Positions 11,055 through 46,133 of a stretch of 64,000 nucleotides of DNA are shown here, one piece after another. The stretch spans positions 5,306 through 69,305 of the forward strand of contig CAZAOE010000003.1 in the NCBI GenBank assembly GCA_964486685.1, read 5' to 3'. The stretch's first letter is position 1. The number at the start of each line of letters is the position of its first letter. Source of the stretch: an uncultured Gammaproteobacteria bacterium (lineage in GTDB: Bacteria; Patescibacteriota; Patescibacteriia; UBA1558; S5-K13). The notes beneath the pieces were generated by a model. It was not told the DNA's origin. It did no database searches and saw only the letters and a program-made list of their open reading frames with translations. Made by a program: the position numbers and the translations under genes.

Positions 11055-11078
11055 CCTGCCTGCCGGCAGGCAGGTATT
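11055..11078. repeat. 24-mer CCTGCCTGCCGGCAGGCAGGTATT (20-bp perfect palindrome) in the tRNA leader
   Basis: identical 24-mer recurs at 30781-30804 upstream of ackA; variant inside porA CDS at 33325-33348. Confidence 0.8.
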
Positions 11079-23940: not shown

Positions 23941-24441
23941 ATGAATTTTAAAAAAATACCAATTATATATCACATTGTTTGGGCAACTCACAGCACTAGA
24001 ATGTCAAAAAGAATGAAAAAATATAAGATAAAATTAAAAAATCCCATATACCTCGACATTAATATGAGATATGAGATTACGAAATATTTAATCAAAATTA
24101 TCAAAGAAGACAAAATTAATATATTGGCTCTCAACGTCTTACACCATCATGTACATTTAATTCTGATTTGTTTTAAATGGAAAAGAGATAATATTGTCCG
24201 CAAATTAAAAGGTAAAACAACTCAATTATATAAAAACAAACATAATATAAAAAAAGAATTCCACCTTTGGCAACAAAAATATAATCACAAAATAATAGAA
24301 TCTGAAGAGCAACTATATAACACCATAAATTATGTTAAAAATAATCATATTAAACACAACATATCTGTCCACAAGGGGTTGCAACCCCTTGTAAAAAAAG
24401 TTTTGTGTCCTGTCGAAGAAATGTATAAAAAAATAGATTAG
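23941..24441 (+). CDS. tnpA: IS200/IS605-family HUH (Y1) transposase / RAYT-like
   Basis: 166 aa; YHIVWATH N-terminal, HUH motif HHHVHLIL, catalytic-Tyr region NYVKNNH. Confidence 0.65.
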   Translation: MNFKKIPIIYHIVWATHSTRMSKRMKKYKIKLKNPIYLDINMRYEITKYLIKIIKEDKINILALNVLHHHVHLILICFKWKRDNIVRKLKGKTTQLYKNKHNIKKEFHLWQQKYNHKIIESEEQLYNTINYVKNNHIKHNISVHKGLQPLVKKVLCPVEEMYKKID

Positions 24442-24530
24442 TGTTAATTTAAAAACTAACTAACTAGACAGATATGATCAAAAACCTTGGGGTTGCAGCC
24501 CCTTGTGGAAAAAGCTCTGTGTTCTGTAAA
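24374..24530. repeat. two REP-like units: perfect palindrome ACAAGGGGTTGCAACCCCTTGT (24374-24395) and CCTTGGGGTTGCAGCCCCTTGTGG (24485-24508), each followed by AAAAAG(Y)T(Y)TGTGT(Y)CTGT
   Basis: ~45-bp direct repeat containing hairpins, at and downstream of the tnpA 3' end. Confidence 0.7.
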
Positions 24531-24646: not shown

Positions 24647-26017
24647 ATGAAATATTCAACCCGAAATTTAATCATTGGTAGTTTATTTATTTTAAACATA
24701 ATTATTGCCAATCATTTTGGATTATTAGATAAAATTGACCAAGAAGATGATTCTAAAATATGGTTTTATAACTCCCATGGTTTTGAATTTAAAAATCATC
24801 AAAAATATACTTATCAAGGAATAATCATCTCGCCTCCTGATACCAGAATGGACCATCAAAAAATTAAACTTAAAACCACTCAATTACTTGAACCAGTTAA
24901 AAAAGAAATATTTGGCAATATATTAGTTAAAATTCCTTTATATCCCCCCTGCGAATACGGAGATAAAGTGGAAATTACCAGTTTTTTAATCCAGCCCGAA
25001 CCAATAGAGGATTTTAGATATGATAAATATTTAGCTAAAGAAAATATTTATTCTCTGGGCTATGGCGCACGAATTAAATTATTAGAAAAAAACAAAGGCA
25101 ATTCAATTTTAAAAATTATTTATAGAATCAGACAAAATATCTCTGAACAAATTAATCAACTCTGGCCCGAACCAACGGCCTCTTTTGTTAATAGCATTTT
25201 ACTGGGATATAAAAAAGCCATGTCCGAAGATTTAAAAGAGGAATTTCGCCGCGCTGGAGTTGCCCACATCATCGTTATTTCTGGACTACATATTACTTTA
25301 ATTACTTTATTACTTTCTAAAATACTTTATGGCTTAAAAATTAAACGCACCCGGCAATTACCTTTTATTTTAATTTTCCTACTTTTCTTTATTTTCTTAT
25401 CTGGCTTCTCGGCCTCAACTTTGCGCGCCAGTTTAATGGGCTTAATTGTTTTACTTAGTCAAAATATCGGTCGCCACCTGCAAAAACACCTAATTTTACT
25501 TTATACAGCTATAATCATTTTAATTATTAATCCTTTATTATTATTCTATGATCTGGGTTTTCAATTAAGTTTTTTGGCCACGATTGGCTTAATCTATCTT
25601 TCTCCTTTATTTCAAAAACTATTTAAATTTCTACCGAAAAAAATGGAAATTCAAAGCACTTTTATCTCCAGCTTCTCTGCTATTATCATGACTCTGCCCC
25701 TAAGCATTAAGCAATTTAAAACTATTTCTATTTTAGCGCCAATTGCCAATCTCTTGGTCTTACCTTTAATCCCAATTTTAATGTTTTTTAGCTTTTTAAG
25801 TATTTTGATTTCTTATTTAAACTTCGCTCTGGCAAAATATTTTGGCCTTCTGCAATACATCTTATCCAAGGTATTGTTTGAAATTATTAATAATATCTCC
25901 ACAATAAAATTTGCCAGTATCAATATAAACAATTTTAATAATTTAAATTTAATCTTAAGCTACGGCTTAATTATTAGCTTATTAATTTATGTCCAGCAGA
26001 AAAAAAATAATAACTAA
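24647..26017 (+). CDS. comEC: ComEC/Rec2 competence channel protein (N-terminal plus competence domain)
   Basis: GVAHIIVISGLHITLI motif; polytopic; 456 aa. Confidence 0.75.
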   Translation: MKYSTRNLIIGSLFILNIIIANHFGLLDKIDQEDDSKIWFYNSHGFEFKNHQKYTYQGIIISPPDTRMDHQKIKLKTTQLLEPVKKEIFGNILVKIPLYPPCEYGDKVEITSFLIQPEPIEDFRYDKYLAKENIYSLGYGARIKLLEKNKGNSILKIIYRIRQNISEQINQLWPEPTASFVNSILLGYKKAMSEDLKEEFRRAGVAHIIVISGLHITLITLLLSKILYGLKIKRTRQLPFILIFLLFFIFLSGFSASTLRASLMGLIVLLSQNIGRHLQKHLILLYTAIIILIINPLLLFYDLGFQLSFLATIGLIYLSPLFQKLFKFLPKKMEIQSTFISSFSAIIMTLPLSIKQFKTISILAPIANLLVLPLIPILMFFSFLSILISYLNFALAKYFGLLQYILSKVLFEIINNISTIKFASININNFNNLNLILSYGLIISLLIYVQQKKNNN

Positions 26018-26087: not shown

Positions 26088-26130
26088 AGCTCCCCTCCTC
26101 AGACGAGGAGGGGATTAAGGGGTGGTGTTG
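26088..26130. repeat. GC-rich palindrome GCTCCCCTCCTC-AGAC-GAGGAGGGGAT (family A-like) between the two comEC parts
   Basis: perfect 11-bp arms. Confidence 0.7.
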
Positions 26131-26189: not shown

Positions 26190-27029
26190 ATGTTTAAAAA
26201 AAATAAAATCGTTATTATCATTATCCTCATCATCGTTGCTATTTTTTATTATCACTTTGAAGATAAATCAAATTTTCTTCGGGTTTGTTTTTTTGATGTC
26301 GGACAAGGAGATTCAATTTTGATTAAAACCCCTCAAGGAAAAAACGTCCTCATTGACGGCGGACCCAGCGCTGAATTAATTCAAAAACTCGGTCCAGAAC
26401 ATGCTTATAAAAACCATCAAATAGATATTTTAATTTTAACTCATGCCCACGCTGATCATTATTACGGACTGATTGAGGTAGTCAAAAGATACAAAATCAA
26501 ATTAATTCTCTGGTGCGGAATTGATGCTCATAATTATGACTACTTATATTTTAAAAATTTAATTAAAGATCTGAATACTAAAATAGCTATTTTAGGACAA
26601 GAATATTTATTAACAAATAATTTAAAAATCAAAATTTTCTATCCTACTCATTATCTTAATGAAGAGGAAGCCACAGATTTAAATAATACTTCTGTTGCTT
26701 TAATTCTAAGTTATAAAAATATAAATTTTTTTCTAGCTGGTGATTTAACTTGTGAGGGTGAGACCGAAATTATTAAACAAAACCTAAATCTTCAAGCTGA
26801 AATCTACAAGGCCAGCCATCATGGTTCGCGCTGGTCAAATTGCGCTTATATTTTAGATAAAATAAATCCTGAAATGGCTATCATTCAATCTAGAATTGAC
26901 AATACCTTTGGACACCCTCATCAAGAAACACTTGATAGATTAAATAACAGAAATATTGAAATATTGCGCAATGATGAATTGGGTGATATTTGGATATATA
27001 GTGATGGTTTAAAATTTTGGCTACCTTGA
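26190..27029 (+). CDS. metallo-beta-lactamase fold protein (ComEC C-terminal domain encoded separately)
   Basis: N-terminal TM, HxHxDH (THAHADHYYG), DVGQGDS. Confidence 0.75.
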   Translation: MFKKNKIVIIIILIIVAIFYYHFEDKSNFLRVCFFDVGQGDSILIKTPQGKNVLIDGGPSAELIQKLGPEHAYKNHQIDILILTHAHADHYYGLIEVVKRYKIKLILWCGIDAHNYDYLYFKNLIKDLNTKIAILGQEYLLTNNLKIKIFYPTHYLNEEEATDLNNTSVALILSYKNINFFLAGDLTCEGETEIIKQNLNLQAEIYKASHHGSRWSNCAYILDKINPEMAIIQSRIDNTFGHPHQETLDRLNNRNIEILRNDELGDIWIYSDGLKFWLP

Positions 27030-30780: not shown

Positions 30781-30804
30781 CCTGCCTGCCGGCAGGCAGG
30801 TATT
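30781..30804. repeat. second exact copy of CCTGCCTGCCGGCAGGCAGGTATT, ~20 nt upstream of ackA
   Basis: identical to 11055-11078. Confidence 0.8.
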
Positions 30805-39220: not shown

Positions 39221-40279
39221 ATGTCTAAAATAAGTATCAACTTGCTTCTCTGGAATGGGGAAAGATATTTGCCCTTTTGTTTAGAGTCATTAAAAAAACA
39301 AAGCTTTTCTGATTGGGAGTTAAACATTTTAAACAATGGCTCTACAGACAATTCTTTAAAATATTTAAAAGAGCATTATCCACAATTTAGAGTAAATAAT
39401 TTAAAACAAAATATTGGTTTTGCTAAAGGACATAATAAATTAATATCCTGGACTAATTCTGAATACATTCTGTGTTTAAATCAAGACACTATTTTAGAAT
39501 CAGATTTTTTAAAAAATGCCATAGAATTTTTAGATCAAAATAAAAATATTGGAGCCGTCAGTCCTAAAATCTATAAATGGAATTTTAAAAAATTGGATAT
39601 TGAAAATCCTCCAGAGCCAGAAATGGCTGGAAAAATGTTAGAGATTGGTAAAACTAATATTATTGATAGTTGTGGATTAAAAATATTCAAAAATCATCAA
39701 GTCATGGATTGGGGACAATTAGAAAAAGATAATAAAAAATTCTCTTCTGCTCAGTCAATATTTGGAGTTTCTGGGGCCCTGCCAATTTATAGAAGAAAAA
39801 CTTTAGAAAAGATAAAAATCAATAATGAATATTTTGATGAGGACTTTTTTTCCTACAAAGAAGATGTTGATTTAAGCTATAGAATACAATTGGCTGGTTA
39901 TAAAATCTATTTTTTGCCCCAGGTAATTGGATATCATGACCGCAGTGTTAGTAGAGATAAATCTATCATTCAGGGACGGAAAATAAAAACTAATTGGATT
40001 AAACAATATTCATATAAAAATCATTTATGGTGTATTGTTAAAAATGAATTTAGTAAAAATTTATCCAAATATTTTTTACCTATATTTTGGTATGAATTGA
40101 AAAAATTTTTATATATTTTAATCTTAGAAAATAAAACCTTAAAATTTTTCTTAAAAAATAAAAAAGAGTATAAAAAAATAAAAAGTAAAAGAAAATATAT
40201 ATTTAAAAATATAGTAAAAATAAAAGCCGAGGACTTGGCCAAGTGGTATGACCAGAAACAAAAAAACAAAAAAACATAA
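39221..40279 (+). CDS. family 2 glycosyltransferase
   Basis: start set at MSKISINLLLWNGERY (ORF-track 39188); GT-A fold with DxD. Confidence 0.75.
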   Translation: MSKISINLLLWNGERYLPFCLESLKKQSFSDWELNILNNGSTDNSLKYLKEHYPQFRVNNLKQNIGFAKGHNKLISWTNSEYILCLNQDTILESDFLKNAIEFLDQNKNIGAVSPKIYKWNFKKLDIENPPEPEMAGKMLEIGKTNIIDSCGLKIFKNHQVMDWGQLEKDNKKFSSAQSIFGVSGALPIYRRKTLEKIKINNEYFDEDFFSYKEDVDLSYRIQLAGYKIYFLPQVIGYHDRSVSRDKSIIQGRKIKTNWIKQYSYKNHLWCIVKNEFSKNLSKYFLPIFWYELKKFLYILILENKTLKFFLKNKKEYKKIKSKRKYIFKNIVKIKAEDLAKWYDQKQKNKKT

Positions 40280-40336
40280 TAACAATTCAACCATTCAACA
40301 ATTAAACAATTAAGCAATTAGTCAATTAACCTATTA

Positions 40337-41161
40337 ATGACTATGACCCTAAGCATTATTATTTTAAATTACAAACAAGCTAATTTGATTAAGTATCAAC
40401 TCAAAAAACTATATCATTATAATTTTGAATTTGATAGTGAAATTATTGTAATAGATAATAATTCTCATGATGATATTCAAGAAATCATTATAGCCGATTT
40501 TCCTAAAGTCAAATTTATAAAATCTAAAAATAATTTAGGATATGCTGGTGGAAATAATCTAGGAATTAAACGGGCTCAGGGAAATTATATTTTAATTTTA
40601 AATCCGGATATTAGGATTAGCCAAGAATCTATTCAAAAAATGCTTGATTTTTTGAAAAAAAACCCTACGGTAGGACTAATAGCTCCTCGTTTAATTAATG
40701 CCGATAAAACAACTCAAGAAACATGCTTTCAATTTCCAAACTGGCAATATCCTTTATTTAGAAGAACTGGCTTTGGGAAAACAAAGTCAGGCAAAAAATG
40801 GCTGGCTAAATTTTTAATAAAGGATTTTGACCACAAATCAACTCGCAAAGTTGATTGGATTATGGGCGCCTGTTGGATGGCTAATAAAAAAACAATTCAG
40901 GAAATTGAATATTTAGATAAAAATTATTTCATGTATTTAGAAGATATGGATTTATGCCGAAGATTGTGGAACAAAAATAAGGCCGTTTATTATTTAGGAG
41001 AAATATCAGCCATTCATCTTCATCAAAAGGCCTCGGAAAATAAAAATATTATTTATTCTTTATTTTTTAATAAACTTTCCCGAATTCATCTTAAATCTTG
41101 GTTTTATTATATAAAAAAATGGCGCGGGCAAAAACTTCCCGCTCCAACTTTAAAAAAATAA
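40337..41161 (+). CDS. family 2 glycosyltransferase
   Basis: LSIIILNYK...IIVIDNNSHD; 274 aa. Confidence 0.75.
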   Translation: MTMTLSIIILNYKQANLIKYQLKKLYHYNFEFDSEIIVIDNNSHDDIQEIIIADFPKVKFIKSKNNLGYAGGNNLGIKRAQGNYILILNPDIRISQESIQKMLDFLKKNPTVGLIAPRLINADKTTQETCFQFPNWQYPLFRRTGFGKTKSGKKWLAKFLIKDFDHKSTRKVDWIMGACWMANKKTIQEIEYLDKNYFMYLEDMDLCRRLWNKNKAVYYLGEISAIHLHQKASENKNIIYSLFFNKLSRIHLKSWFYYIKKWRGQKLPAPTLKK

Positions 41162-41163
41162 AA

Positions 41164-41958
41164 TTACTCAAAACTACAACTTAAATAAACTCCTTTAAAT
41201 TTTTTGTCTATGGAAAATACTTTCGGTTTTAATTTTGATATTAAAGGAAAAATTGTAGGAAAAATTTTTAAAAAAGGGCTATTAAATTTTTCCAATTTAT
41301 AATTTAAAAGGGCCTGATAATCATTTTGCATATCTTGCAAAACATCGTCCGCAATTTTAATGGCCTCGTCTTTATTGACTTCATTAAAATTTTCAATCAA
41401 ATCTCCACAAGCAATTAAAACAATTTCTTGATTTTCTTGAACTAAAAAATTGTTCAATAATTCTCCAAACTTCAAATGATAATCAAAATCCCCATCTGAA
41501 CAGCGAATAATAATAAATTCATTTTTTATATTGGTGTCGTGAACCATTTTCTTTTCAAATCCCCGAGAGTCAATATGATATTTATTTAAATAATATAATG
41601 GCACAAAGGCCTTATAACTTACTTTTGGATTTGAAAATAAACGAATGTCAAAATTATTAACCAATAAAAAATCTCTTAATCTAGTGCTAATATCTAAATC
41701 TCCCAAAATATTAAATTGGATTGATAAATCTCCAAATTCTTTAAAATTAACCGCATATTCTTCGCTTTGATTTATAGAAATACTCTGAACAGCTTCTTGT
41801 GGAGGAGTAATAATAAAAATCTTATCTGGATTCAAATTATAAATAATTTGTCTTATTTTTTTCAAGGCCTGAATAGAAATAGAAACATTTTGAGAATATT
41901 CTTTCCCTATTTTAGAAATCATTAAAGGATTATGAGGAATAAAAAATGTATGAATCAT
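41164..41958 (-). CDS. hypothetical protein, possibly LigB/Memo-superfamily (class III extradiol dioxygenase-like)
   Basis: 264 aa; N-terminal FFIPHNPLMI resembles the FxxHGSP His motif of LigB/YgiD; weak. Confidence 0.3.
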   Translation of the reverse strand: MIHTFFIPHNPLMISKIGKEYSQNVSISIQALKKIRQIIYNLNPDKIFIITPPQEAVQSISINQSEEYAVNFKEFGDLSIQFNILGDLDISTRLRDFLLVNNFDIRLFSNPKVSYKAFVPLYYLNKYHIDSRGFEKKMVHDTNIKNEFIIIRCSDGDFDYHLKFGELLNNFLVQENQEIVLIACGDLIENFNEVNKDEAIKIADDVLQDMQNDYQALLNYKLEKFNSPFLKIFPTIFPLISKLKPKVFSIDKKFKGVYLSCSFE

Positions 41959-41963
41959 AATTA

Positions 41964-43388
41964 TTATAAAGGATTGCTTTCCTGTTCTTCTGGCAAGAGC
42001 TCTTCTTCTAAAATATCTTGTTCTGTTTCTTCAACAATATCGCCCAATTCATGTATTAATAAAACATTTTCACTTAATTCAATAATGTCTTTCCAAAAAT
42101 ATCCTAAATTCTCAAAAACTTCAGCACTATAAATGGGCCTTCTTTTCCCTTCAGAAATAATATAAACGCTATTATCATTTTCGGTTTTAACTAAAATACC
42201 ATCTTTAATTTTAACTAACACGCCCGTAGTCAAAGAATTTATTTCTTCTTCGGAAACATCAATAATATATTGTCCACCAAAATCTATCTTTAATATCTCT
42301 TCGCTAATAATTGGATATTTGTATCCATTTTTAACATAAAAAATATGATTATCGTATTTTAATAAAGCCCCGGCTGGATACATACTATCCATTGTAATGG
42401 GCTCTCCCTGAACATAATAATAAGCGTCTTCCCAGGTGATATTAATTATTTCTTCAGGATTAACCCCAAAATATCTTCTTACTTCCTCTGAAACAAAGGG
42501 CCTTAGTTTGTCCACGTCTAGCATATAAACTTGAGCATCTGGAGTTCTTAAATAAGCATAATTAGCAAATTTTATAGGTGAACCTTCTAAATATTTTATT
42601 AAATCATTATACTGAACCTCAACAATATCATTGGGGTCATATCTACTAACAAATGCCGTCCAAGTAATAAAAGGACTTCTTCTCCCATTCTCAATCAACC
42701 AAACGCCTGGCGTCCCAATTTCTTTTAAAATACTTCCATTAGGATAATTACGCGTAAACCATTTATTCCATATTTTCCAAAAATTATAATTACCATTAAT
42801 ATGTGGCGTGTAATTATATAAACAAACCGTGGCTTGATTCATGGGGGTTATTATACGATTATCTATTAAATATTCCTGACCAATTTGAAAAAGCCAGGGC
42901 TGATTTTTATTATCAATATAAAACCTATTTCTCTCCGCCGCATACATTACTTGCTTATAAAAACCTCGATATTCCTGCAAAACCGAATCAGTCATACTAC
43001 AATCATCACAAATAGCATAACCACAAGCCCAATCTAAGGCCTTTAAACTAGGGGTAGGATTAGTGATTAAGCTTTGTTCTTTTTGTAATAAAACTAAAAG
43101 ATACTTAGGATTAATCTGATAAGTTTGAGCAGCTTGATAAATTATCTCGGCTGCAGATATTTCTTCTGAATTTTCAGGATTAGTAGTATTATAATATTTT
43201 AAAATACCGTTTTGACGATTTAAAAAATAATTAATATCATCCATGGTCATGGAATTATAATCTCCTAATTCATAATCAGAAATAATATAATTAGGACTAA
43301 AAAGCACGTCAAAATCTTCCTCAGCCAAAAAAGCAAAGTTTGGAAATAACAAACCAATTATTGCTAATATTAATAAAAATTTTTTCAT
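41964..43388 (-). CDS. secreted hypothetical protein (signal peptide; possible cell-wall-active domain)
   Basis: 474 aa; cleavable signal peptide; LLVLLQKEQSL segment faintly SLT-like; acidic C-terminal tail. Confidence 0.45.
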   Translation of the reverse strand: MKKFLLILAIIGLLFPNFAFLAEEDFDVLFSPNYIISDYELGDYNSMTMDDINYFLNRQNGILKYYNTTNPENSEEISAAEIIYQAAQTYQINPKYLLVLLQKEQSLITNPTPSLKALDWACGYAICDDCSMTDSVLQEYRGFYKQVMYAAERNRFYIDNKNQPWLFQIGQEYLIDNRIITPMNQATVCLYNYTPHINGNYNFWKIWNKWFTRNYPNGSILKEIGTPGVWLIENGRRSPFITWTAFVSRYDPNDIVEVQYNDLIKYLEGSPIKFANYAYLRTPDAQVYMLDVDKLRPFVSEEVRRYFGVNPEEIINITWEDAYYYVQGEPITMDSMYPAGALLKYDNHIFYVKNGYKYPIISEEILKIDFGGQYIIDVSEEEINSLTTGVLVKIKDGILVKTENDNSVYIISEGKRRPIYSAEVFENLGYFWKDIIELSENVLLIHELGDIVEETEQDILEEELLPEEQESNPL

Positions 43389-43610: not shown

Positions 43611-44687
43611 CTAGCTAACTATATTCAAACTATATTTACAATTCTGACATAAACCACTCTTGTCATTCCTTGTAATGATATACCCTTGTCTTTCAATATT
43701 CAAGGCCCCACACTCTGGACAATAGGTATTTTCTCTATCATCTTCCGCAATATTACCTAAATAAACATATTTTAAACCTACTTCCTTACCAATACCATAG
43801 GCCTGATCTAATTCTTTTTCTGAAGTAGCTTGCTTAGACAAAAGTTTATAAGAAATTTCTGGAGAAAATTTAGAAATATGCCAAGGTGTATCTACACCCA
43901 ATTCTTTTTTAATAAACTCAGCTATCTTCTTAATTTGTCCTTGAACATTAGTTTCTCCTGGAATAATTAGAGTAGTCACCTCTATAAAAACTTTTTTTTG
44001 TTTTAAATAAACTAAATTATTTAGAATTGGTTCTAAAGAACCTCCTGTTATTCTTTTATATTTTTTATCTAAGAAAAATTTTAAGTCCACATTAATAGCA
44101 TCTAAATAGGGGAGTATTAAATCCAAACATTTTTGACTCATAAAACCATTAGAAACCCAGACATTTTTTAATTTATGTTCATGGGCCAATTTCATAATTG
44201 GCAAAGCAGTTTCCAAAAATACTGTTGGTTCAGTATAGGTATAAGCAATGGAAAGACAATTATTATCTTTAGCTTCGGCAATGATTTCTGCGGGCTCAAT
44301 TAATTCTCCAGGAAATCTACTATCTAATTTCTCAATTTTTTGTAACTGGGAAATCTGCCAATTCTGACAATTAAGACAATGAAAATTACAGCCCATGCCA
44401 GCAATAGAATAAGTCAAACTACCTGGTAAAAAATGAAAAAAAGGTTTCTTTTCAATAGGATCAATGTTTTTAGCAATCAATTTATTATAATTTAAAGCAT
44501 ATAATTTGCCCTGAATATTTTTCCGCACCCCACAAACCCCAACATGATTTTCAGCAATACTACAAAAATGATTGCATAACTCGCAATTTACAACACCGCT
44601 AACTTTCTCCCCCTTTTTAAGAGGGAGGTGTCCGGAGGACAAAGAGGGTTTACCTTTTTTATATAATAAAGCTTCGTGCATACTCAT
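43611..44687 (-). CDS. radical SAM enzyme, AmmeMemoRadiSam-system (AmrS)/PflA-like
   Basis: CNFHCLNCQNW cluster motif; C-terminal CPECG...CQNCK zinc ribbon; N-terminus carries in-frame family-A element. Confidence 0.7.
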   Translation of the reverse strand: MSMHEALLYKKGKPSLSSGHLPLKKGEKVSGVVNCELCNHFCSIAENHVGVCGVRKNIQGKLYALNYNKLIAKNIDPIEKKPFFHFLPGSLTYSIAGMGCNFHCLNCQNWQISQLQKIEKLDSRFPGELIEPAEIIAEAKDNNCLSIAYTYTEPTVFLETALPIMKLAHEHKLKNVWVSNGFMSQKCLDLILPYLDAINVDLKFFLDKKYKRITGGSLEPILNNLVYLKQKKVFIEVTTLIIPGETNVQGQIKKIAEFIKKELGVDTPWHISKFSPEISYKLLSKQATSEKELDQAYGIGKEVGLKYVYLGNIAEDDRENTYCPECGALNIERQGYIITRNDKSGLCQNCKYSLNIVS

Positions 44688-44810: not shown

Positions 44811-46133
44811 GGCTCTATAATAATTAGTGTGTAAAAAAAGAAGGGTTTTAATGTAAAATTAGCATATAAACCAAGCTAAAACATTAAAACACCTTCTATG
44901 AACAAAGATATAACAAAGTTTTTTGAAATACAAGGGTATCTTGTATACAAAACTAGAATTGATAATGATCAAAACATAATAATTAGAATAGGAAGACCAA
45001 AAAACAAAAATGAGTGTCCAGATTGTAAAAGTAAAAAACATTATCTTCACAGTAAAGGAAAATGGACATTAAAAAAACATTCTAACTTTCAAGAAAAACA
45101 AATATATTTAGAAGTAAAAAGAAAAAGATACAAGTGTAAACAATGTCAAAGAGTGTTTAGTGAAAAATTACCAGATATACCTAGATATGCTAGAAAAACA
45201 AATAACTTCATTAAACAATCATTAAACTATCTGTCTAAGAATTCATTTAATGAAGTAGCTAAAGTAAATCAAATTAGTTATCCTAGTTTAAAAGATCAAC
45301 TATATAACTATGTTAATCCTTTTCAACTCTTAGAACATCAAATACAGCAATTAAATAAACTAAATGAAATATATCTTGGTTTAGACGGACAAAGTTTTAG
45401 AGGACAAAAAATGGTTCTAACCATTACAGAAGTGAAATTAAAAAAACTAATCACTATCTTACCATCAGAATCACAATCTGATTTACTGATATTTTTAAAA
45501 CAATTACCATTATCCACTAGATTAAAAGTAAAAGGTATATCGATTGATATGACTAACAAACATATTAGTTTATTAAGACAATACTTTCCTAATGCTAGAA
45601 TGGTCATAGATCATTATCATGTTGTTCAACAAGCTATATATAGATTACAAGAAGTAAGAAGAATATTACAAAGTGTAAACAGAGTTAATATACCTATTAA
45701 GAAAGAACTAGATAAAAACTATGAAAGTTTGACAAATCAAGAAAAAATAAAGATGCTTAAATATTTCATTATCTATCCAGAATTAAAAGAAGCTTACTGG
45801 TTTAAAGAAAGATTAAGATCTGTCTATCGGATTAAGAAGTATGACAAAGCTAAAAGAAGATATATAATATTAAAAAAAGAACTATTAAAACATAGTAATA
45901 ATAGTTTAAAGGAACTAGGTAAAACTTTACGTAATTGGCAAGTAGAAATACTAAATTACTTTATTACTAAAAAGATTACTAATGCTTATACGGAAGGATT
46001 ACATACTAAGTGTAAATTGATAAAAAGGAAGTCTTATGGTTTCAGAAATGTAGATACCTATGTTCGAAAGCTACTTCTTGGCTTAATACCGCTAATAACT
46101 ATACTTTCTTTACACACTATTTGACATAGAGCC
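44811..46133 (+). mobile_element. ISL3-family insertion sequence (1323 bp) with ~25-bp imperfect IRs (GGCTCTAT...AGTGTGTAAA) and 8-bp TSD AATTCCCC
   Basis: IRL 44811-44836 vs reverse complement of 46108-46133; direct repeat AATTCCCC at 44803-44810 and 46135-46142. Confidence 0.85.
44898..46124 (+). CDS. ISL3-family transposase
   Basis: N-terminal zinc ribbon CPDCKS...CKQC; DDE region with ARMVIDHYHVVQQAIYRLQEVRR typical of ISL3. Confidence 0.85.
   Translation: MNKDITKFFEIQGYLVYKTRIDNDQNIIIRIGRPKNKNECPDCKSKKHYLHSKGKWTLKKHSNFQEKQIYLEVKRKRYKCKQCQRVFSEKLPDIPRYARKTNNFIKQSLNYLSKNSFNEVAKVNQISYPSLKDQLYNYVNPFQLLEHQIQQLNKLNEIYLGLDGQSFRGQKMVLTITEVKLKKLITILPSESQSDLLIFLKQLPLSTRLKVKGISIDMTNKHISLLRQYFPNARMVIDHYHVVQQAIYRLQEVRRILQSVNRVNIPIKKELDKNYESLTNQEKIKMLKYFIIYPELKEAYWFKERLRSVYRIKKYDKAKRRYIILKKELLKHSNNSLKELGKTLRNWQVEILNYFITKKITNAYTEGLHTKCKLIKRKSYGFRNVDTYVRKLLLGLIPLITILSLHTI

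Follow-up and report, generated by a model that had tools for sequence, protein, structure and literature searches.

The described repeats closest to the element considered here are the BoxC/TMECO/PIT elements of E. coli and other bacteria (Hoyne & Maher 2000; Holder et al. 2015, PMC4666352), among which BoxC/TMECO of E. coli is the studied case of the class II purine-motif design of potential intrastrand triplexes (PIT); TMECO forms a triplex in vitro as single-stranded DNA, and in E. coli is always intergenic and without link to mobile elements (PMC4666352). Palindromic repeats that lie in frame in still-functional genes are represented by the Rickettsia palindromic elements (RPEs), in the account of Ogata et al. 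(2000) that is cited in PMC3733652, and the REP/BIME/REPIN repeats also occur occasionally inside ORFs, reportedly often those of replication or repair genes (PMC3733652). Intergenic repeats of Rhizobiales (RIME, Sm-repeats and 'AB, C palindromes') are mentioned in PMC2573895. The window analysed here, i.e. the whole stretch of 64,000 nucleotides, contains several copies of a short GC-rich repeat, one of them (copy D) in frame within a gene for an AmrS-like radical SAM enzyme. We consider it probable that the element belongs to a short GC-rich repeat family that is widespread, of PIT (BoxC/TMECO) design and selfish or neutral, and that the copy within the gene is tolerated as a loop.

On the G-rich strand, family members read from a pyrimidine arm (Y1) through a short loop into the complementary purine arm (R1), and on through a linker to the mirror arm (R2), which is a purine or G/T arm that mirrors R1. 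The linker between R1 and R2 takes one of two forms, both present in the family: 3-5 nt, or a covarying hairpin (hp2) with G..A loops. This second loop is TAT in copy B and TTA in copy C, and in copies A and D consists of G plus a hairpin of 13-15 nt. The elements are 30-78 nt long, and those in the window, with the gene that holds copy D, are as follows.

1385 to 1462, plus strand: copy A, a full nested element in the rfbB-rfbD spacer
1389 to 1397 with 1449 to 1457, plus strand: outer stem of copy A
1403 to 1448, plus strand: arms of copy A, namely Y1 (1403-1410), R1 (1416-1423), hp2 (1425-1439, GGA loop) and R2 (1440-1448)
2402 to 2446, plus strand: copy B, downstream of rfbD, without hp2
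2411 to 2423, plus strand: Y1 of copy B, TCTCCCCT (2411-2418), and loop TACCA (2419-2423)
2424 to 2442, plus strand: R1 of copy B, AGGGGAGA (2424-2431), linker TAT and R2, AGAGGGGT (2435-2442)
2483 to 2553, minus strand: copy B2, a loosely matching copy oriented the opposite way
26090 to 26127, plus strand: copy C, in the spacer separating two comEC ORFs
26090 to 26100, plus strand: Y1 of copy C, CTCCCCTCCTC, followed by loop AGAC
26105 to 26127, plus strand: R1 of copy C, GAGGAGGGGA (26105-26114), linker TTA and R2, AGGGGTGGTG (26118-26127)
43611 to 44687, minus strand: AmmeMemoRadiSam-system radical SAM enzyme gene (AmrS-like; TIGR04337)
44599 to 44652, plus strand: copy D, antisense to this gene and partly decayed, identified by model R1 and the architecture scan (below)
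44607 to 44614, plus strand: Y1 of copy D, CTCCCCCT
44615 to 44619, plus strand: loop 1 of copy D, TTTTA
44620 to 44627, plus strand: R1 of copy D, AGAGGGAG, followed by a single G
44629 to 44641, plus strand: hp2 hairpin of copy D, TGTCC-GGA-GGACA (GGA loop)
44644 to 44651, plus strand: R2 of copy D, GAGGGTTT

A scan for the full three-part design (8-nt arms, at most 1 mismatch) found five loci in the window, at 1402-1456, 2410-2443, 26090-26127 and 44607-44652 on the plus strand and at 1389-1424 on the minus strand; 100 Markov shuffles of the window sequence gave no locus. Copies A, B and C had 0 mismatches in the Watson-Crick and mirror arms, and copy D had 1 Watson-Crick mismatch and 1 triplex mismatch; the minus-strand locus reflects the fact that copy A can also be read as a three-part element in that direction. 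A covariance model (model R1) built only from copies in phyla other than Patescibacteria matched copy A at 1393-1450 (51.9 bits, E 1e-12), copy D at 44599-44652 (31.3 bits, E 8e-7) and copy B at 2402-2446 (24 bits, E 9e-5), which bears out the family of GC-rich nested palindromes proposed in an earlier note on this DNA. The looser members that the note had placed at 2404-2560 and 26088-26130 were likewise recovered, and the sequence at 44601-44652 is as it had been quoted; the claim that the copies are the most GC-rich spots stands for copy A, which ties for the top 40-mer, and not for copy C (about 11th) or copy D (outside the top 25). The third, mirror-repeat arm, the feature that identifies the kind of element, had been overlooked.

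The individual copies differ in their state. The segment 1388-1458, spanning copy A, is a three-way junction of an outer stem and two inner hairpins (DNA fold -24.6 kcal/mol, z -6.2), and copy A has terminal inverted repeats of 13-15 bp; when it was considered as a MITE, a related transposase was not found. An ISL3 element is adjacent. Copy B2 comprises a long imperfect hairpin holding a mini-hairpin, followed by the tail AAGGGGAGGTT (DNA fold -17.1 kcal/mol, z -3.7), and scores only 7 bits with model R1 (E about 5). The R2 arm of copy C (DNA fold z -3.7) mirrors R1 except for T in place of A at two positions. Copy D folds weakly as DNA, no better than shuffles (z -0.65 on the plus and -1.8 on the minus strand), and its orthologue in a relative folds strongly (-18.8 kcal/mol, z -6.2).

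Across 68 aligned copies, 97.6% of the cells in the helices pair (97.2% in helix 1), with compensatory changes in 14/14 pairs and a match in 0/500 shuffles, these covariation counts being inflated by their derivation from a model-fitted alignment of related copies; MAFFT applied to 40 copies misplaced the variable hairpin, and the model-based alignment was used instead. The mirror arm is likewise non-random: among 126 metagenome matches for which the first hairpin was the sole criterion, 41 have the mirror heptamer AGAGGGG no more than 45 nt downstream, as against at most 5 for each of the 20 other permutations. Triplex-compatible combinations account for 93.7% of 522 mirrored cells, as against 47-66% with slid pairing, and variant R1 cells are mirrored in 11/40 cases compared with 1.6 in shuffles. 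At single positions the variants disagree, some supporting triplex covariation (AGG with GGA, AAA with AAA and, at locus L201, GGAGAAGG with GGATGAGG) and others not (L206, L166:3829 and copy D of the window), and several members break the mirror rule at one position; for this reason only the aggregate mirror test was used, and we infer actual triplex formation by the elements here by analogy. Copy D has mismatches in its hairpin as well as in its mirror arm.

The loops of the hairpin linker carry G..A in 45 of 64 distinct cases and the complementary T..C in 0/64, an asymmetry that, as far as sequence can tell, indicates strand-specific folding and is a cleaner test of it than the G.T/A.C comparison. 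The asymmetry of G.T against A.C in helix 1 had also been considered as evidence of strand folding, and was dropped since model-based selection favours G.U pairs.

Being short, palindromic and multi-copy, with apparently strand-specific folding, the elements also invite comparison with REP/REPIN repeats that are copied by a REP-associated tyrosine transposase (RAYT) acting on single-stranded hairpins, in which case the mirror arm would be incidental; REPs within ORFs are on record (PMC3733652), and a RAYT-like protein is encoded in the window, by 23941-24441 (PF01797, E 4.6e-9; best NCBIfam match REP_Tyr_transpos, 41.6 bits). However, this ORF falls below the 80-bit cut-off, the hairpin flanking its gene is of another kind, CAAGGGGTTGCAACCCCTTG, with two copies there and none elsewhere in the window, and tblastn with the RAYT-like protein gave 0 matches in 255 fetched loci, multi-copy loci included. 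The elements lack the GTAG/CGTC head, their ends being TTTTCTCCCC... and ...GAGGGGTT, and the strongly non-random mirror arm is one that a REP model does not predict. We accordingly regard a RAYT-copied REP/REPIN element as unlikely, and a PIT-type repeat as the better description.

The same design is present in Rhizobiales, Chloroflexota, Firmicutes, Actinomycetota, Bacteroidota and metagenomes, with 8-kb loci of Bifidobacterium, Chloroflexota, Oscillospiraceae and Bacteroidales holding several copies each; the most abundant relatives are intergenic repeats in Mesorhizobium, Rhizobium and Sinorhizobium (aTCTCCCCCCTTGnGGGGGAGATGTCCGGCAGGACAGAGGGGGG). Further in-frame copies lie in the inter-domain linkers of PolA (L212) and DnaX (L141) on metagenome contigs. 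Rfam gave only two tRNAs at the gathering score for the whole window, and chance-level matches only for copies from the window and five other loci. The hairpin-bridged core, GGGAGRTGTC...GACAGAGGGG, is nearly constant across at least 6 phyla ranging from 30% to 70% GC, and such constancy would imply a shared machinery for the single-stranded DNA fold. Tentatively, then, the hairpin-bridged form may be a distinct pan-bacterial element whose fold is recognised or copied by shared machinery, either host-encoded or element-linked, a possibility to which we give less credence than to a selfish or neutral PIT-type family as such.

Turnover of the sites is seen among relatives. Copy A is missing from the rfbB-rfbD spacer in four relatives, hp2 is present or absent between orthologous copies, and one relative locus (L249) holds a decayed homologous version of copy C in the identical place; a further locus (L255) has, also downstream of rfbD, a member of the TTACCAA-loop subfamily, to which copy B belongs, and this member carries hp2. 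At the four plus-strand loci of the window (n=4, no control), relatives differ in gene order or spacer content, which we note as a lead. The idea that the element splits comEC is refuted, as the MBL half is an ORF of its own, of about 280 aa, in 120/120 best homologues; the comEC ORFs of the window are in different frames (24647 and 26190), and in two relatives they overlap by 23 nt. The two-ORF arrangement is, on this comparison, ancestral, and copy C only lies within a spacer inserted later. The presence or absence of copies at such sites is what suggests that the family is selfish and mobile; a search for target duplication, a linked enzyme or a copying mechanism found none.

Copy D lies in frame near the start of the AmrS-like gene, as the earlier note had proposed, and within its first approximately 30 codons. 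The protein scores 298 bits with TIGR04337 (cut-off 220), the true start of its gene is likely the second ATG, at 44681, and on the minus strand copy D encodes residues K13-P-S-L-S-S-G-H-L-P-L-K-K-G-E-K28 of the ORF 43611-44687. Alignment of 33 homologous proteins, together with DNA alignment of filled and empty sites, shows that 16 codons have been inserted in frame (about residues 12-31), with the conserved MHEALLYKK before them and VNCELC after. The insertion is missing from about 28 homologues of 340 aa (alignment A1) and present in three close lineages, as 10, 16 and 18 codons, for a net gain of 48 nt (window), 54 nt (L001) and 30 nt (L004); target duplication was not evident on comparing filled with empty AmrS sites. 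The insertion-bearing proteins recur across independent assemblies (19 and 3 contigs inspected) and retain all of the family's invariant residues. Other AmrS homologues have different inserts, at other positions.

It had also been proposed that homologues begin near VNCELC, which would place the element in an untranslated 5' leader and the real start downstream of it. The insertion does lie near the 5' end; nevertheless, homologues in fact begin MxEALLYKK, 13 residues upstream of VNCELC, as the window protein does, and because of this shared start copy D is an internal in-frame insertion and not an N-terminal extension or mis-called start. The conserved motif lies upstream of the element without a change of frame, both in the window and in 32/32 aligned homologues, with A6, L8 and Y9 nearly invariant, and VNCELC offers no start codon with conserved residues beginning there, which makes a wrong start scarcely credible. 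That homologues might share the extension, a finding the earlier note would have held against its own reading, applies to P0002 (82% identity) and P0003 (83%), which share the insertion because it is orthologous, and to none at 79% identity or below.

The AlphaFold model of the protein has pLDDT 86.6 overall and pTM 0.87; its residues 11-30 have pLDDT 55-61 and no secondary structure, and are flanked by strands at 9-12 and 32-35; a PDB sequence search with the AmrS-like protein gave no match at E 1e-5. The inserted residues are thus predicted to be a low-confidence floppy loop at a beta-turn, just before the N-terminal Cys motif. Position next to this Cys-rich motif, and retention of the reading frame and of the peptide motif K-P-S...P-L-K/E-K-G-E-K in all three lineages, might be taken to mean that the peptide is an adaptive addition, e.g. 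a new interaction loop, with the palindrome a by-product. We think this very improbable: the length of the insert varies among these close relatives, the stretch is unstructured in the model, more distant homologues all manage without it, and the sequence of the peptide follows from a DNA element that is seen in non-coding DNA and in unrelated genes as well.

Selection might instead act on the nucleic acid, the element being a functional cis-regulatory structure, either an rfbB/rfbD terminator or attenuator or a hairpin in the AmrS mRNA that tunes translation or stability. Copies A and C do place stable hairpins between co-oriented genes, a coding region has one at its 5' end, the G/C third-codon positions of the insertion are retained in three lineages in a 30% GC genome, and pyrimidine-motif triplexes are possible in RNA of the C-rich strand (PMC4666352), which is the AmrS mRNA strand. 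Against this, the element is not tied to one orientation with respect to genes (copy D antisense, copies A-C sense), its sites are not conserved in relatives, it matches no Rfam family, and the gene copy in the window has decayed to the weak fold given above. The role as terminators or attenuators envisaged in the earlier note is unsupported: no T/U run follows any copy and the terminator scan flagged none, a terminator and promoter scan of 1200-2800 gave nothing at the elements, its sole terminator-like site being 2626-2605 (minus strand) and none falling at copies A, B or B2, and E. coli PIT elements had neither promoter nor terminator activity on testing, in the work as cited in PMC4666352. 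A regulatory function is in our judgement quite unlikely, and copy D looks like tolerated selfish DNA rather than a regulatory signal or an annotation error.

For a selfish or neutral repeat of PIT design, the following course of events may be proposed. In single-stranded DNA, Y1 and R1 would form a hairpin, and R2 could double back along R1 in antiparallel orientation and occupy its major groove by reverse-Hoogsteen pairing (G*G.C, A*A.T, T*A.T); the second loop is in many members, copies A and D included, itself a small hairpin, hp2. The family would behave as selfish or neutral DNA, multi-copy, present or absent at orthologous sites and decaying. One copy would have inserted into the AmrS-like gene in an ancestor of three related Patescibacteria lineages, at the beta-turn just before the N-terminal Cys motif, and could be tolerated there as a disordered surface loop because it has no stop codon in frame and a length divisible by three; later change in the gene copy would have been limited to in-frame gain or loss of hp2 and point decay. 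For annotation, short GC-rich in-frame inserts in Patescibacteria proteins should be read as repeat insertions, not as new domains or wrong starts. The in-frame palindromic-element phenomenon of Rickettsia RPEs and some REPs becomes linked to triplex-type repeats of the BoxC/PIT kind, which had been described as strictly intergenic, and whose hairpin-bridged form spans many phyla. Should triplexes arise on intermediates of replication or repair, the elements could cause local polymerase stalling and rearrangement in very small genomes.

Among known systems, the element resembles BoxC/TMECO (class II purine motif) in the order of parts along a single strand (a C-rich arm, a loop of 3-6 nt, the complementary G-rich arm, a second loop and the mirror G-rich arm) and in having multiple copies at variable loci, some of them arranged as tandem inverted pairs; copy C has, moreover, the TTA second loop known from TMECO type A. 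The arms are of different sequence, with no match to the TMECO consensus CCCTCNCCC N3-6 GGGNGAGGG N3 GGGNGAGGG on either strand of the window, and in place of the 3-nt second loop of TMECO many members here have a covarying hairpin of 12-45 nt; since the loops in the published ITxF search are limited to 1-6 nt, that search would miss hairpin-bridged members. Unlike the intergenic TMECO, copy D is in frame in a gene, and its host is an AT-rich Patescibacterium. The Rhizobiales relatives may correspond to one of the families RIME, Sm-repeats and 'AB, C palindromes'; a text search of the accessible literature for the Rhizobiales core found no paper containing it. With REP/BIME/REPIN the family shares short GC-rich hairpin repeats set in mosaics with other modules and occasionally placed inside ORFs, the element here being carried by PolA and DnaX, whilst it has no GTAG/CGTC tag, flanks no RAYT gene and possesses a mirror third arm. 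Fungal mitochondrial GC clusters and double-hairpin elements are likewise GC-rich hairpin modules that spread in AT-rich genomes, sometimes in frame, but are organellar and presumably unrelated in sequence. RPEs are about 100-150 bp long, form a presumably unrelated sequence family confined to Rickettsia and are not known to possess a mirror purine arm. Copy D nevertheless works like an RPE, without RPE membership being thereby implied: it is inserted in frame, conserved residues are kept, the added peptide is at the protein surface, and the repeats are found in non-coding DNA as well.

The window is AT-rich (29.7% GC), the best matches of its proteins are from Patescibacteria, and short GC-rich hairpins are generally far in excess in it (57 seed matches vs 3.3 in shuffles). 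A scan for a three-part architecture (8-nt arms, at most one mismatch, second loop of 1-25 nt), in which a pyrimidine arm is followed by a complementary purine arm (R1) and, beyond a linker, by a third arm (R2), identified copies A, B, C and D on the + strand, with copy A also found on the - strand; the full architecture had no match in 100 shuffles of the window.

Members of the repeat in the window
1385-1462, copy A in its fuller version: outer stem CACCCCCTC with GAGGGGGTG; inner hairpin CTCCCCCT-AAATT-AGGGGGAG; second hairpin TGTCTC-GGA-GAGACA; G-rich tail GAGGGGGTT
2402-2446, copy B, an additional copy
2483-2553, a loose copy in the opposite orientation
26090-26127, copy C, an additional copy
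44599-44652, + strand, copy D: TTTCTCCCCCT-TTTTA-AGAGGGAG-G-TGTCC-GGA-GGACA-AA-GAGGGTTT

As single-stranded DNA, copy A is predicted to form a three-way junction (-24.6 kcal/mol, z -6.2). Copy D is decayed as a structure: its DNA fold is weak (z -0.65 on the + and -1.8 on the - strand), and its orthologue at the related locus L001 folds strongly (-18.8 kcal/mol, z -6.2). Cumulative GC skew along the window rises up to ~40 kb and then falls, and gene orientation near ~40 kb passes from mostly + to mostly -; this switch, at ~40000-42000, may mark a replication terminus or origin, or be a mere gene-orientation effect.

Searching a species-representative genome collection with the pattern GGGAGRTGTC N3-13 GACARAGRGGG, derived from two window copies and L001, gave matches of which most of those listed come from Rhizobiales, the plasmid matches of that order being located in unannotated DNA; the others listed include Dehalococcoidia, Anaerolineae, Oscillospiraceae, Bifidobacterium, Acidimicrobiia, Bacteroidales, Dokdonia and Myxococcales. 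For nearly all matches listed, the first hairpin arm is found in the upstream flank, which the pattern left unconstrained, and within the second hairpin the inner segment is variable yet self-complementary (at least 47 distinct versions among the matches listed). A covariance model, likewise named R1, was built from 14 non-Patescibacteria copies; it scores both the palindrome at 44601-44652 and that at 1388-1458, confirming the kinship proposed for them in the earlier note.

Scores with covariance model R1
Window copy A: 51.9 bits, E 1e-12
L001 gene copy: 37.8 bits
Window copy D: 31.3 bits, E 8e-7
New copy in the relative L007: 28.4 bits
Window copy B: 24 bits, E 9e-5

With this model, 8-kb loci of several phyla contain three to six copies each. 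Over 68 aligned copies, in an alignment that is fitted to the model and so leans towards structure, pairing is present in 97.6% of cells with compensatory changes at 14 of 14 pairs, a level matched by 0 of 500 shuffles and compared with 53-75% in slid controls. No Rfam family matches the element. Tandem arrays also occur, with five copies at ~80-nt spacing on a metagenome contig (L240) and three at 118-nt spacing in Bifidobacterium callimiconis (L067:472-768).

The tail that follows the hairpins is the mirror image of the purine arm, not its complement.

Purine arm and mirror arm
Rhizobiales: R1 GGGGGGAGA, R2 AGAGGGGGG
Bifidobacterium: R1 GGGAGGGAG, R2 GAGGGAGGG
L007: R1 GAGAGAGA, R2 AGAGAGAG
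Window copy C: R1 GAGGAGGGGA, R2 AGGGGTGGTG (A replaced by T)

For a non-circular test, metagenomes were scanned with the first hairpin alone (TTTTCTCCCC N3-10 GGGGAGA). The mirror heptamer AGAGGGG lies within 45 nt downstream in 41 of 126 distinct matches and upstream in only 4, whilst the remaining 20 permutations of these letters, direct repeat included, each reach at most 5 of 126. Mirrored cells are G-G, A-A or A-T in 93.7% over the 68 aligned copies, as against 47-66% when slid, and variant R1 cells are matched at the mirror position in 11 of 40 cases vs 1.6 in shuffles, a figure inflated by kinship of the copies. The R1-R2 linker is either 3-5 nt long (TAC, TTA, CTA or similar) or consists of T and a hairpin of 12-45 nt with highly variable stems; removal of the hairpin core from T-GTC...G-AC leaves exactly TAC. 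Loops of these hairpins are of the form G..A (GAA, GCA, GTA, GGA, GGCA) in 45 of 64 distinct versions and T..C in none, indicating that only the G-rich strand is under selection for the hairpin. This points to a single-stranded fold and not a duplex binding site.

The ORF at 43611..44687 (-) encodes an AmmeMemoRadiSam-system radical SAM enzyme (TIGR04337, 298 bits vs a cut-off of 220; PF04055). Alignment with 32 homologues bears out that copy D lies in frame near its start. Those homologues had been expected to begin near VNCELC, with the repeat as an N-terminal extension; instead, every sequence opens with M-x-E-A-L-L-Y-K-K, and the insert is internal. In ~28 of the 32, each of ~340 aa, N-K-D-K-T-V-D-C-x-L-C follows, and the window protein carries G-K-P-S-L-S-S-G-H-L-P-L-K-K-G-E-K-V-S-G-V between K11 and V33.

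Insertion-bearing proteins
P0001, the window protein: 100% identity, net insertion of 16 residues
P0002: 82% identity to the window protein, net insertion of 18 residues
P0003: 83% identity to the window protein, net insertion of 10 residues

Homologues at or below 79% identity have no insertion. The insertion-bearing loci are syntenic and therefore represent a single orthologous insertion. Comparison of the DNA of the three filled sites places most of the variation in the second hairpin (TGTCC-TCC-GGACA in the window, TGTCGAGC-TCA-GCTCGACA in L001, missing from L004), all length differences being multiples of three; insertion-bearing proteins were found on 19 and 3 contigs of independent assemblies. 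In an AlphaFold model made with the homologue alignment (mean pLDDT 86.6, pTM 0.87), residues 11-30 have pLDDT 55-61 and no secondary structure, between strands 9-12 and 32-35; the predicted insert site is accordingly a beta-turn, immediately before the invariant Cys35-x2-Cys38-x3-Cys42. Given the conserved start upstream and the loop position, the start codon is not mis-called, and the inserted peptide is, from the model, most likely a tolerated loop. Directly upstream, an ISL3-family transposase (NF033550, 227 bits) occupies 44898-46124 (+), where at most a small ORF is present in L001, L004 and L006; GCAAAATGCAAAAC on both sides of it (~44722 and ~46757) perhaps marks its insertion. Other AmrS homologues (P0108, P0034, P0119, P0016; alignment A1) carry short inserts elsewhere (IQNSPAPLLKAGNAI, ASLREAGQARIA, TRAQNNFVLGRAHKICAP, a C-terminal tail), at least one of which back-translates to a palindrome; these sequences suggest that genes of this family acquire repeats recurrently.

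The earlier interpretation is partly right overall, in that the palindromes are related and one is in frame. It placed copy C in the gap that splits comEC, but the split is not due to the element. The window comEC indeed comprises two ORFs (24647-26017, DUF4131 and Competence; 26190-27029, MBL), separated by a 172-nt spacer containing copy C, but such two-ORF genes are found throughout Patescibacteria, 120 of 120 best homologues have the MBL half as an ORF of its own (~280 aa), and in L250 and L251 the ORFs (2659-4023 / 4001-4843) overlap by 23 nt. The junction sequence is duplicated either side of the inserted spacer in the window and in L249, an 82% relative in whose homologous spacer the element has decayed and lost its pyrimidine arm. 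In the rfbB-rfbD spacer, copy A is present in the window only, L252, L253 and L255 having other GC-rich palindromes and L254 an extra gene; this spacer is a hot spot for GC-rich palindromes. They differ from relative to relative (L252:2395-2505, L253:2360-2505, L255:2380-2505, the last with e.g. TGTCATTCCACGGCTTGACCGGGGAATC). L255 carries, downstream of rfbD, a copy in which the TTACCAA loop of copy B is combined with a linker hairpin, and L252-L254 have no element there. From this presence, absence and decay across relatives, copies come, go and decay, and orthologous copies differ by gain or loss of the linker hairpin.

The RAYT-like ORF at 23941-24441 (+) would be the obvious candidate for copying the element, but its flanks carry another hairpin, CAAGGGGTTGCAACCCCTTG, and not the triplex-type element, and no detectable relative lies near element copies elsewhere, among 255 loci searched. 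The ORF encodes a 166-aa Y1 (IS200-like) transposase whose best NCBIfam match, REP-associated tyrosine transposase, scores 41.6 bits, under the 80-bit cut-off; it is missing at the corresponding position in L249-L251, and its hairpin occurs twice, at and beyond its 3' end (24372-24391, 24486-24505), and nowhere else in the window. Related Patescibacteria and one Bacteroidales genome (L004:18193, L005:8264, L255:3422, L118:4280) share with the window a second family of GC-rich palindromes, CCTGCCTGCCGGCAGGCAGG (11055-11074, 30781-30800). A third module, with GAAGCTTTAGCG, lies at 60742-60781 (GCCCGAAGCTTTAGCGTAGGGC at 60747-60772) and 2522-2537, and in L140, L145 and L203; on metagenome contigs it makes up the interior of long linker hairpins in the triplex-type element, and the families therefore form mosaics.

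We describe a multi-copy three-arm family with strand-specific hairpin selection and site turnover, together with a single old insertion, in frame and at a beta-turn, into an otherwise intact gene. Where the G-strand is exposed as single-stranded DNA, it could form a hairpin whose groove takes up the mirror arm, the linker hairpin serving as a compact loop; so folded, it may stall polymerases and favour local rearrangement. Copy D would have persisted because it brings no stop codon in frame and disturbs nothing.

The order of pyrimidine arm, loop, purine arm, loop and mirror purine arm is that of a class II purine-motif potential intrastrand triplex (PIT), of which the studied example is E. 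coli BoxC/TMECO, CCCTCNCCC N3-6 GGGNGAGGG N3 GGGNGAGGG (PMC4666352). Single-stranded TMECO DNA adopts a triplex in vitro; in E. coli the element lies without exception between genes, some copies are arranged in tandem inverted pairs, and its loci show unusually high rearrangement among strains; RNA forms no purine-motif triplex, and the genome search for intrastrand triplexes limited loops to 1-6 nt (PMC4666352). According to the same source, PIT elements are capable of arresting DNA polymerase in vitro, but neither promoter nor terminator activity was seen for them (PMC4666352). The TMECO sequence pattern has no match in the window; copy C has the TMECO layout, with TTA as second loop, whereas in copies A and D a hairpin replaces the short second loop. 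In-frame palindromic repeats within genes have precedents in Rickettsia (RPE) and in some REP families, genes for replication and repair being reportedly frequent targets (PMC3733652). The present element lies inside long ORFs on three metagenome contigs, always outside Pfam domains.

In-frame elements on metagenome contigs
L212:56-2863, - strand, DNA polymerase I, inter-domain linker, aa 299-314
L141:2751-4340, - strand, DnaX, aa 412-429
L142:481-2124, - strand, DUF6371 primase-like protein

The L212 polymerase linker also holds an additional GC-rich repeat-like peptide, HPSPSEERGRGEV. The element is a new hairpin-bridged, gene-invading variant of BoxC/PIT-type repeats that behaves like the Rickettsia palindromic elements.
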